Source: Candidatus Pelearchaeum maunauluense (GTDB lineage: Archaea > Thermoproteota > Nitrososphaeria_A > Caldarchaeales > Caldarchaeaceae). Taken from it: DNA of 25,421 nt. The stretch covers positions 1-25,421 of the forward strand of contig JANVYQ010000015.1 in the NCBI GenBank assembly GCA_030059675.1, read 5' to 3'. Made by a program: the position numbers and the translations under genes. Below are positions 9,841 through 21,528 of this stretch, piece after piece (the stretch's first letter is position 1; the number at the start of each line of letters is the position of its first letter). The notes below the pieces were generated by a model that worked only from the letters and a program-made list of their open reading frames with translations, did not search any database and was not told where the DNA came from.

Positions 9841-10187
9841 ACATTCTTCAGGGCTACTAGTATAAGCCATACACTAGCCATACTCATCGTTATTGTTTCT
9901 TGAATTGCCACACCTTGCCAAGGCCATCTCACAAACCAGATGAGCGCTGAAGCTATGCCGAATGCAAGCGCTAGGGCGCCTAGCCTAGGAGAGCCGAGAG
10001 GCCATGAGACATAGCTGTATATGAAGAGGGTAATAGGCGTGGCGATGAATAGAGTAATAGACAATGTTCTATGTATCTCTCCGAAGTCTTCGGAGAAGAA
10101 TCCGCCAAGCGCCAGGTTTATTCCTACAATTGTTAGGGGGATGAGCCACGCACTATACTTCCAAGACCTATGAACAGCCATTATGCC
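9837..10187 (-). pseudogene. DUF998-family membrane protein, C-terminal part
   Basis: GIMAVHRSWKY..LALGGFFSEDFGEIH..GVAIQE; continues in frame from the inverted middle part once reconstructed. Confidence 0.85.
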
Positions 10188-10358
10188 GCAACGGTGGCTT
10201 ATGTCTTCATAGCAGTCTCAAAATCGTTAGCCCCCTGGTTTGACTTTAGGAATAACGCATTAAGCGACTTGGGCGGCTCGGTATATCACGGCTCCCTCAC
10301 ATGGATATTCAACACAGGACTCATGCTCTCAGGTGCTTTAGTTATAGTCTTCGCGATA
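10188..10358 (+). pseudogene. DUF998-family protein, middle part, inverted relative to the rest of the gene
   Basis: ATVAYVFIAVSKSLAPWFDFRNNALSDLG..IFNTGLMLSGALVIVFAI, a typical DUF998 N-terminal motif. Confidence 0.85.
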
Positions 10359-10360
10359 GG

Positions 10361-10625
10361 GTTCTGGTCTACATCGAGATACGTGGACCTTGGCCGTCAC
10401 CAGGCCTTGGCCCCCTCTCGGGCTCGGCATCGCCCTCCAGCCCTGTCGGGTCGAACCCGCCCCACACGTCTTCGCTCAGGCCGTTTCCAGCCCGAGGTCA
10501 TCCATGTGGGGAAAGCCCCCCATCTGAAGGTTTACATCATCCACAGGCCGCTAAGCGAGCCAGACCCAATGTACATAAAAGACTTTTGTCTATTTAAGCC
10601 TATCTATCTTGAAACTGTTAGTAAC
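10361..10625 (-). mobile_element. Non-autonomous IS607-like miniature element, copy 2 (265 bp)
   Basis: GG cores at 10359-10360 and 10626-10627. An 18-nt block identical to copy 1 at 10600-10617, CTTCAGATGG at 10520-10529, terminal CAGAAC. TATA-like CTTAAATA at 10591-10598 on the minus strand. Confidence 0.88.
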
Positions 10626-10658
10626 GGCGAGGATGCCGATTATCTGAGGCGCTTTCAA
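10626..10658 (-). pseudogene. DUF998-family protein, first 11 codons (MKAPQIIGILA)
   Basis: The TTG start overlaps the methyltransferase TGA and joins in frame to the inverted middle part across the shared GCCG. Confidence 0.8.
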
Positions 10659-11527
10659 GGCTGTTCCTTCTGCGCCACAACTAGCGTGTTTCCACCTAAT
10701 AACTTGATTCCAGGCATTCTTCCAAGCAGTTTATCTAACATGCTCAATAAACGAGCCGTGGAGAGAATGATTCTATTCTTAGTGTTTTGCTGTACAACCG
10801 TTGGTATTAGCCCAGCTAGGAGAAGGGCGCTTCTCTGGCTAATTATACGGAATCCCACGCGCCTAAGTAGGCTTCGTATCTCCTTATGCGTGAAGACGCG
10901 CATATTCAGTACCTCCCTAGTTGCTGGGAGCCTCCACCTTATCAGGCCACCATCAGGCGACTTGACAAGCTTCAACATCTGCTCACTCGTGGTAACGTAT
11001 CCTATCCTGTTTCCTATTAGGCTATCAACCAGCATCCACATAGTATCTAAACTCCATTTAACATCATACCCCAATACTAGCAGGCCGCCTGGCTTCAATA
11101 TCCTATGAGCCTCCATGAGCATTCTGCCTGGGTCTACGCTGTCATGGCATATCAGTTCCCCAACCGCTATTACCATATCAGCTGAGAGGTCTCGTATGGG
11201 CACGTTGTTGGCGTCGGAGCATACTAGGCTCACCCGCTCTTCATTACCATTATTACGGACTATCCTGAGCGAGTTGTATGAGAAGTCAGTCGCCACCAGC
11301 TTCGCGTCATCCTTACCATCCAGAAGCTCCACAAACGGGTCCCAGCCAGAGCCCAGCTCCACTATCACGCCGTTATGCGGCGCGGCCCCGCATACAACGC
11401 TCAACTCAAGCTCATACAGCGACAAGTCATATGGATTCTCGCGATAAATCTTGTCTTGTTCAGCCCAAGTGGCTGATTCTGATATTTTTTCATATACCTC
11501 ACGCGTGGAGGACGCTTTCATTATCAC
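10655..11527 (-). CDS. Class I SAM-dependent methyltransferase
   Basis: IVELGSG motif I, ATDFS, CSDANNVP, HRILKPGG. Confidence 0.88.
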   Translation of the reverse strand: MIMKASSTREVYEKISESATWAEQDKIYRENPYDLSLYELELSVVCGAAPHNGVIVELGSGWDPFVELLDGKDDAKLVATDFSYNSLRIVRNNGNEERVSLVCSDANNVPIRDLSADMVIAVGELICHDSVDPGRMLMEAHRILKPGGLLVLGYDVKWSLDTMWMLVDSLIGNRIGYVTTSEQMLKLVKSPDGGLIRWRLPATREVLNMRVFTHKEIRSLLRRVGFRIISQRSALLLAGLIPTVVQQNTKNRIILSTARLLSMLDKLLGRMPGIKLLGGNTLVVAQKEQP

Positions 11528-21425: not shown

Positions 21426-21528
21426 CGCCGGGGGTGGGATTCGAACCCACGCGGCCCGCGGGGGCCGCAGGCTTTCTTTCGATTATGTGGGCTCAAGGCC
21501 TGCGCGTTATCCGCTCCGCCACCCCGGC
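21426..21528 (-). tRNA. tRNA-Ser(UGA) with an 18-nt intron at canonical position 37/38 (21474-21491); CCA not encoded
   Basis: Acceptor stem GCCGGGG/CCCCGGC, anticodon arm CAGGC-CTTGAG[intron]A-GCCTG, long variable arm, T-arm GTGGGTTCGAATCCCAC, discriminator G. Confidence 0.95.

Follow-up and report, generated by a model that had tools for sequence, protein, structure and literature searches.

What is the short, gene-less element at positions 10,359–10,625 of this archaeal contig, and how did it come to lie in a broken DUF998 gene? The whole stretch of 25,421 nt that was analysed (hereafter the window) is contig C18 of the 1.79-Mb draft genome of Candidatus Pelearchaeum maunauluense (G000; 21 contigs, estimated completeness 94%). 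An initial annotation had proposed a mobile unit that expresses a guide RNA, each insertion of which would add to a dispersed guide repertoire for a TnpB nuclease encoded in trans. The explanation favoured here, in which as a whole we have good confidence, is that the element arose by deletion from an archaeal IS607-family element as a gene-less, non-autonomous derivative (MITE), which a serine TnpA would have moved in trans and which is laid out as a stand-alone omegaRNA. The earlier idea was largely right about the origin of the element and left its parent family, an IS607-type one with a serine recombinase, unnamed.

Element ends and copies in the genome

The window element is read on the minus strand and measures 267 nt from left end to right end (10,359–10,625), with the sequence GTTACTAA...CCAGAACCC. 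A 97% identical copy is located on contig C13 (34,517–34,784), and these two are the genome copies of what is termed here the B type. The A type is about 166 nt long and is present as six full copies, two variants of about 210 nt and fragments at three contig ends; by BLAST and alignment, approximately nine genome copies or fragments share 93–97% identity. One A-type copy lies on the plus strand of the window itself (431–596, 166 nt, with GCC before it at 428–430); it shares the left end and the right-end plan of the B-type element and lacks the TATA-like segment described below. The corresponding deletion junction in the A type falls at CTT, which is found on both sides in the B type. The left end common to both window copies, already recognized in the initial annotation, is a 33-nt inverted match between 428–460 and 10,596–10,628 (82% complementary), and the right end of the A-type copy was placed at 596, not past it as first supposed.

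Printed in register, the genome copies of both types begin with GCC-N8-CAGTTTCAAGATAGATAG. The conserved 18-mer (10,600–10,617 in the window element, minus strand) accounts for 11 genome matches, nine of them exact and two with one mismatch, and a reversed control pattern had no occurrence in the genome. It also heads TnpB-bearing elements in three related genomes (G039, G055 and G031) and, judging from the sequence, is likely to be the region recognized by TnpA. The GCC target motif (10,626–10,628, minus strand), common to the element junction and the empty site, precedes all 11 genome copies, standing 4 nt further out in one of them, and it also precedes most related elements in other genomes. 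The longer motif TGCC, said to stand before both window insertions, did not hold: only the A-type copy is preceded by TGCC, the B-type element by CGCC, and across the 11 copies the base before GCC is T in four, C in five and A in two. Of the flank pattern anticipated earlier (TGCC/GCC), GCC alone was retained.

Both types finish in a hairpin followed by AGAACCC. In the window element this hairpin, GGTCCACGT..ATGTAGACC (10,366–10,389, minus strand), was matched by covariance model R1, and the right terminus AGAACCC (10,359–10,365, minus strand), whose final CC corresponds to the presumed core, is invariant in A-type, B-type and TnpB-bearing elements. Neither terminal inverted repeats nor a target-site duplication were found in the alignment of ten A-type copies and fragments with their flanks, or at the empty site of the related genome G001. 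In a given element, the variable 8 nt after the left-end GCC resemble the 3′ arm of the hairpin at its right end (for example, GTAGCTAG vs GTAGCTCAG); this was seen in the A type, the B type, two related elements (L030 and L083) and the copies of G031, and the two sequences may be transposase half-sites.

A-type fragments were observed at the ends of contigs C8 (5–113), C13 (1–46) and C15 (42,448–42,538). Because the assembly breaks at this repeat, the true number of A-type copies may be higher than that counted. The identity of 93–97% among copies implies, moreover, a fairly recent spread, for which a helper would have been required, since lost or encoded on DNA that the assembly does not include.

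Between the ends of the window element, a TATA-like box, CTTAAATAG, is situated at 10,590–10,598 on the minus strand and is predicted to be the retained tnpA promoter. The initial annotation had pointed out this box as CTTAAATA, which was confirmed at 10,598–10,591. Among the left ends compared that are not of the A type, most have a box at the corresponding place, identical to that of the window element in two left ends of G039 (L014 and L018) and a variant of it in the remaining ones. Near the predicted transcript start lies a 5′ hairpin, GGCTCGC-TTA-GCGGCC (10,546–10,561, minus strand), with GGCTAC-GTA-GTAGCC at the same position in L106, a B-type MITE of another genome, and GGCCGC-TTA-GCGGCC in the C13 copy, all three having been read off the alignment and being unscored. 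The 3′ half had been described as GC-rich and structured, and both descriptions were borne out: 10,359–10,529 has a GC content of 65.5%, whereas 10,530–10,628 has 41.4% (whole window, 49.8%), and the fold beats 200 of 200 shuffles (z −3.52).

As had also been noted, the 267-nt element has no transposase ORF, and a Pfam search of the frame that traverses it returned the start of DUF998 only. A plus-strand ORF of 312 codons (10,170–11,108) is an artefact, in which the reading frame continues from the start of the DUF998 gene across the antisense strands of the MITE and a methyltransferase gene (10,655–11,527, minus strand); for annotation purposes, this long ORF reflects a broken DUF998 gene read across the MITE. 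At gathering thresholds, Rfam matched a 16S rRNA and one tRNA in the whole window and no family for the element, and a search of 10,300–10,700 in E-value mode gave a single chance match (E 0.69). The tRNA match (21,426–21,528, minus strand; 48.8 bits) has a 21-nt insert in the anticodon region and is probably an intron-bearing archaeal tRNA; ARAGORN reports none at this position.

The 16S rRNA match concerns the site of the A-type copy. Positions 1–1401 of the window are the 3′ part of a 16S rRNA gene containing an intron of about 755 nt (approximately 213–966), and this intron holds a two-motif LAGLIDADG (homing-endonuclease) frame that is interrupted by the A-type MITE, which lies on the rRNA strand. 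Removal of 431–596 in silico restored one open frame of 214 codons spanning both LAGLIDADG motifs. Among the 16S genes of 30 relatives there was no MITE-free copy of the intron: 23 matched the exon parts only, and one short contig matched the intron start at 73%.

Parentage and the search for partner enzymes

When 60 relatives were searched for the left end, G039 had eight matches, and a few more came from other members of the order. Past the left end and its TATA-like box, the elements of G039 and G055 have a start codon (about 22–24 nt downstream), then a remnant of a MerR-type HTH and a TnpB ORF of 294–416 aa, the 3′ end of which runs into the hairpin and AGAACCC; in the full-length relatives, it is the tnpA ATG that stands about 22–24 nt past the box. 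Four relatives (L030, L031, L033 and L034) are TnpB-only elements between the shared ends. A further relative in G031 (L083) has every part of an IS607-type unit, with a frameshift separating its MerR HTH and Resolvase parts: between the left end GCC-GTAGCCAA-CAGTTTCAGAATA and the right end GAGCTATG..CATAGCTC-AGAACCC, it contains MerR HTH (2e-6), Resolvase (5e-22) and TnpB TNB (2.5e-11) domains.

Both MITE types can be traced to elements of this kind. The A type shares 83–89% identity with the final 190 nt of the L030 element; for the 3′ 100 nt of the A-type copy in the window, identity with the 3′ end of L030 tnpB is 83%. The B type is colinear with the same tnpB 3′ end, and its omegaRNA-like scaffold (10,359–10,529, minus strand), which lies on the tnpB strand, comes from the last codons and 3′ region of that gene. 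What the window element retains is thus the left end, including the tnpA TATA box, some 25 codons from the end of tnpB with the 3′ untranslated part, and the right end (hairpin and AGAACCC). Since the left end, tnpB 3′ end and right end are shared, both MITE types are internal-deletion derivatives, the B type having also kept the predicted tnpA promoter.

B-type elements are not confined to G000. At least 11 B-type matches were found in G031, and the seven copies scanned for ORFs were all gene-less, followed a common plan and had no TnpB ORF upstream; L106 is a further B-type MITE in another archaeal MAG. The TATA-like box is present in every B-type copy printed, its sequence being exact in L050, L106 and both copies of G000. 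The B motif was absent from ten TnpB or resolvase loci. An exact 21-mer of the B scaffold had nine matches in species-representative genomes (six contigs of one MAG that were left unexamined individually, L106 and two bacterial chance matches), among which no full-length parent was recognized; it had two chance matches in metagenome contigs and none in viral contigs. A protein-coding parent of the B type was not found in three archaeal lineages.

The partner enzymes were searched for in G000 (94% complete) with Resolvase, Y1_Tnp and OrfB_IS605 domains, none of which had a match, and one match was obtained to the TnpB zinc-ribbon domain PF07282. Likewise, tblastn of this genome with five related TnpBs, one TnpB from a different IS607 subfamily and two TnpAs recovered, besides the MITE copies, no more than one distant and broken tnpB. 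This sole tnpB homologue (L009, G000:C13:4111–7302) is distant from the cognate TnpBs, is split into two pieces that are encoded on opposite strands, and lacks an AGAACCC end. On the plus strand, a left-end-like motif and a TATA-like box precede its N-terminal part, on either side of which stands a direct repeat of about 22 nt; a tRNA-Phe (934–1010 of the locus) follows this part, and the C-terminal part is on the minus strand. In the same-genus genome G001, neither TnpB nor Resolvase had a match, and the counts were 41 TnpB and 4 Resolvase matches in G031 and 12 and 4, respectively, in G039.

Because this genome is without a cognate TnpB or TnpA, its copies are orphans, most likely relics of a past invasion or of helpers located outside the assembly. 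The earlier proposal is accordingly divided. A mobile, gene-less unit derived from TnpB-bearing elements, with a promoter-like TATA box and a scaffold region that shows covariation, stands. A dispersed guide repertoire serving a trans-encoded TnpB is unsupported in this genome, since it is 94% complete and has no cognate TnpB and no serine recombinase, nor does it have a Y1 transposase.

Conserved pairing in the hairpin and scaffold

A covariance model was built from seven right-end hairpins, and all of its matches in 78 sources were aligned; this model replaced a simple hairpin scan, the 369 matches of which were mostly due to chance. Among 33 distinct rows, 95.3% of the cells were paired and 8 of 13 pairs showed two-sided changes. 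None of 500 shuffles was as good, and sliding the partner reduced pairing to 16–37%. When antisense rows were removed, 243 of 257 cells remained paired in 24 distinct right ends, and none of 1,000 shuffles performed as well. The initial annotation had drawn attention to the terminal stems of the two window copies, GGTC..GACC in the B-type element and GACC..GGTC in the A-type copy, each followed by AGAACCC, and had concluded that the 3′ hairpin covaries. The swap is indeed as described, and it is part of a family-wide pattern, since the rows of the covariance model keep pairing through two-sided changes. With 8 G.T cells vs 12 A.C cells, the right-end hairpin by itself names neither the folding strand nor RNA over DNA.

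The B scaffold gave a comparable result: in ten rows, which are related copies, 92.2% of the cells were paired and 12 of 40 pairs, predicted from the same alignment, had two-sided changes, none of 500 shuffles being as good. With L106 added (11 rows, 8 of them from one genome), two-sided changes were counted in 12 of 32 pairs. The internal B helices contain many G.U pairs on the element strand. Two pair-breaking changes were found in the C13 copy, and the A type alone folds less distinctly (z −1.44; 16 of 200 shuffles as good). In this small sample of related copies, hairpin and internal helices alike keep their pairing through two-sided changes.

These data bear on the alternative that survives best, according to which the element is an IS607-derived MITE as described above, the hairpin and scaffold are merely inherited DNA or cis transposition signals, and no functional RNA is made. 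Such a reading would accommodate the lack of a partner TnpB in the genome, the right-end hairpin without an excess of G.T over A.C, the pair-breaking changes in the C13 copy and the missing TATA box of the A type. However, IS607 transposases are described as recognizing short direct repeats on double-stranded ends, and the word "hairpin" is absent from the main text of that study (PMC6188088); a strictly covarying hairpin would thus be left unexplained. The internal helices also covary, with their many G.U pairs on the element strand, and the TATA-like box has been kept in all B-type copies printed. We therefore regard a DNA-only role as unlikely. Because end recognition is described in that main text in terms of direct repeats on double-stranded DNA and not of hairpins, a covarying hairpin that abuts the flank is more readily understood as the final stem in the scaffold of a guide RNA, and we infer that this is what it would be in the window element. 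The putative guide, TATCGCGAAGACTATAAC (10,341–10,358, minus strand), is the flank past the right end, named by its position only and with a function assigned by the known layout of TnpB omegaRNAs. As the initial annotation stated, it is antisense to the start of the DUF998 gene in its present orientation.

Insertion, inversion and relation to known systems

The same-genus genome G001 provides the DUF998 locus without the element (C121, 1300–1560; L038), with the gene intact on the minus strand. The empty site reads ..CTC-GCC-GCAACAG. In the window, the left end of the element is joined to ..CTC-GCC, whereas its right end is joined to TATCGCG.., found in G001 at a distance of 171 bp and oriented the other way. 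The reciprocal joint, CATTAT-GCC-GCAACGG, is found at 10,180–10,194, where GCC (10,185–10,187, plus strand) stands between the left flank of site 2, CATTAT, and the right flank of site 1, GCAACGG. The 171-bp gene segment between these joints (10,188–10,358, codons approximately 12–68) has been inverted between two inverted CC cores. The G001 comparison and Pfam concur on this point, as positions 3–64 of the DUF998 profile match on the plus strand (10,170 onward) and positions 68–183 on the minus strand (10,181–9837). Flipping 10,188–10,358 and removing 10,359–10,625 in silico yielded a frame of 208 codons, of which 188 of 208 residues are identical to the G001 protein without gaps.

CC is present at the left junction (..GCC|G..), at the right junction (..AGAACCC|), in the G001 empty site and in the second site. 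The element was inserted at GCC with a CC core and with neither target duplication nor inverted repeats, and one of its ends was exchanged precisely and reciprocally with a second, inverted GCC site; from these junctions, the CC within GCC is inferred to be the crossover core. Insertion at one GCC and conservative exchange between an element end and a pseudo-site are expected to give the 171-bp inversion observed. Two insertions, recombination between them and one precise excision would lead to the same outcome, and either route needs cuts exactly at the CC core. The precise inversion between inverted GCC sites is compatible with serine-recombinase chemistry; an assembly error is conceivable as its source, but the exact match of the joints to both CC cores argues against one.

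The same joints weigh on a second alternative, a palindrome-associated element (PATE) of the IS200/IS605 family, which would be moved as single-stranded DNA by a Y1 (HUH) TnpA reading subterminal hairpins. Such an element would likewise have no inverted repeats and no target duplication, its hairpin would sit a few bases inside the right end, and it would insert 3′ of a short fixed motif, as is seen here. An IS200/IS605 identity was indeed considered first, and it was dropped when full-length relatives sharing these ends turned out to encode a serine recombinase with a MerR HTH instead of a Y1 enzyme. The genome also has no Y1_Tnp match, and the reciprocal, precise inversion joint fits a conservative double-strand exchange, making a PATE very improbable. 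Least credible of all is a non-mobile host small-RNA gene, for example an antisense regulator of DUF998, which would account for the TATA-like box, the stable fold and the flank antisense to DUF998, but the element is absent from the homologous locus of G001, occurs at several unrelated loci and in other archaeal lineages, and has no Rfam family, and the DUF998 gene is broken at this locus where a regulator would have controlled it.

The second B copy also lies at a junction (L049 1387–1767, G000:C13). Its right flank, after GCC, is homologous to a nucleotidyltransferase-like gene of G001 (C34, 1–440; L097), where the corresponding site reads GCC|TTTATTTC; its left flank is a HEPN-like fragment, which is not the neighbour in G001. 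This arrangement suggests an end-adjacent deletion or rearrangement, as judged from the flanking sequences. For the C13 copy, only the right flank was informative in G001; the sequences flanking the C20 copy matched two different contigs there, at a distance from the junction, and those flanking the C14 copy matched nothing in that genome.

Under the IS607-derived explanation, a serine TnpA acting in trans would have moved the element through a circular double-stranded intermediate with CC as the crossover core. From the retained promoter, a transcript of the scaffold would run into the flank and form a stand-alone omegaRNA, with the 16–20 nt past the right end as its guide, and the cognate TnpB would recognize GCC as its transposon-adjacent motif. 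As no helpers are encoded here, the copies would be orphan relics of a past invasion, or their helpers would reside on DNA outside the assembly.

This scheme corresponds in many respects to IS607, described as having a serine TnpA, a circular double-stranded DNA intermediate, a 2-bp core, no target duplication and no inverted repeats, and a TnpB whose TAM equals the TnpA target (10.1101/2023.11.20.567912; PMC6188088). As in H. pylori IS607 and the C. botulinum IS607-type IStron, as far as the cited texts describe them, terminal inverted repeats and target duplications are absent, and a 2-bp core is found at both junctions and in the target; the gene order in the relatives is a MerR-HTH serine recombinase and then tnpB, the 3′ end of tnpB together with the right end accommodates the guide-RNA region, and the expected TAM coincides with the target. 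Unlike the IS607 elements described there, the present one uses CC within GCC and not GG within (T)GGG, is found in archaeal hosts and lacks both genes.

Stand-alone omegaRNAs acting in trans have been described (PMC10691335), and gene-less PATE-like elements are stated to "often encode" omegaRNAs (PMC10055086). The window element adds one more case to those known. It resembles them in combining gene-less mobilized ends with a guide-RNA scaffold and in needing TnpB in trans; according to the same sources, however, those are of IS200/IS605 type or occur in genomes that hold an effector, whereas the window element is of IS607 type, keeps a tnpA promoter and has no cognate effector. SMN1 of Sulfolobus islandicus (320 bp, non-autonomous and mobilized by ISC1733; PMC3718332) is, in the description cited, also an archaeal gene-less element that needs a transposase in trans, but it has no sequence relation to the window element and serves as a lead only. 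TnpB-only (IS1341-type) elements are likewise represented among the relatives, since L030, L033 and L034 have, between these ends, tnpB but no intact tnpA, in contrast to the window element, which keeps only the last tnpB codons. In the literature searched at title and abstract level, no IS607-derived guide-RNA MITE was described in archaea.

A more far-reaching view, which we put forward tentatively and think rather doubtful, is that the promoter-bearing B-type guide-RNA MITEs form a self-sustaining lineage. Their RNA fold would be under selection so that any compatible TnpB protects and re-copies them, and their ends would be portable recombination sites, with which a serine TnpA could invert or delete adjoining host DNA by way of GCC pseudo-sites; DUF998 would be one instance and the HEPN/MNT junction of the C13 copy a possible second.

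The mechanism by which IS607 transposases select and exchange DNA has been called unresolved (10.1101/2023.11.20.567912, in the text cited). The DUF998 locus, being a natural record of a precise exchange between an element end and a pseudo-site, bears on both the choice of target and the exchange of DNA in this family. To the known gene-less guide-RNA elements, the window element adds an archaeal, IS607-type (serine-recombinase) case that has kept a promoter and uses a GCC/CC target in place of GG. Lastly, the related full-length elements offer pairs of thermophile TnpB and scaffold with a predicted GCC motif.
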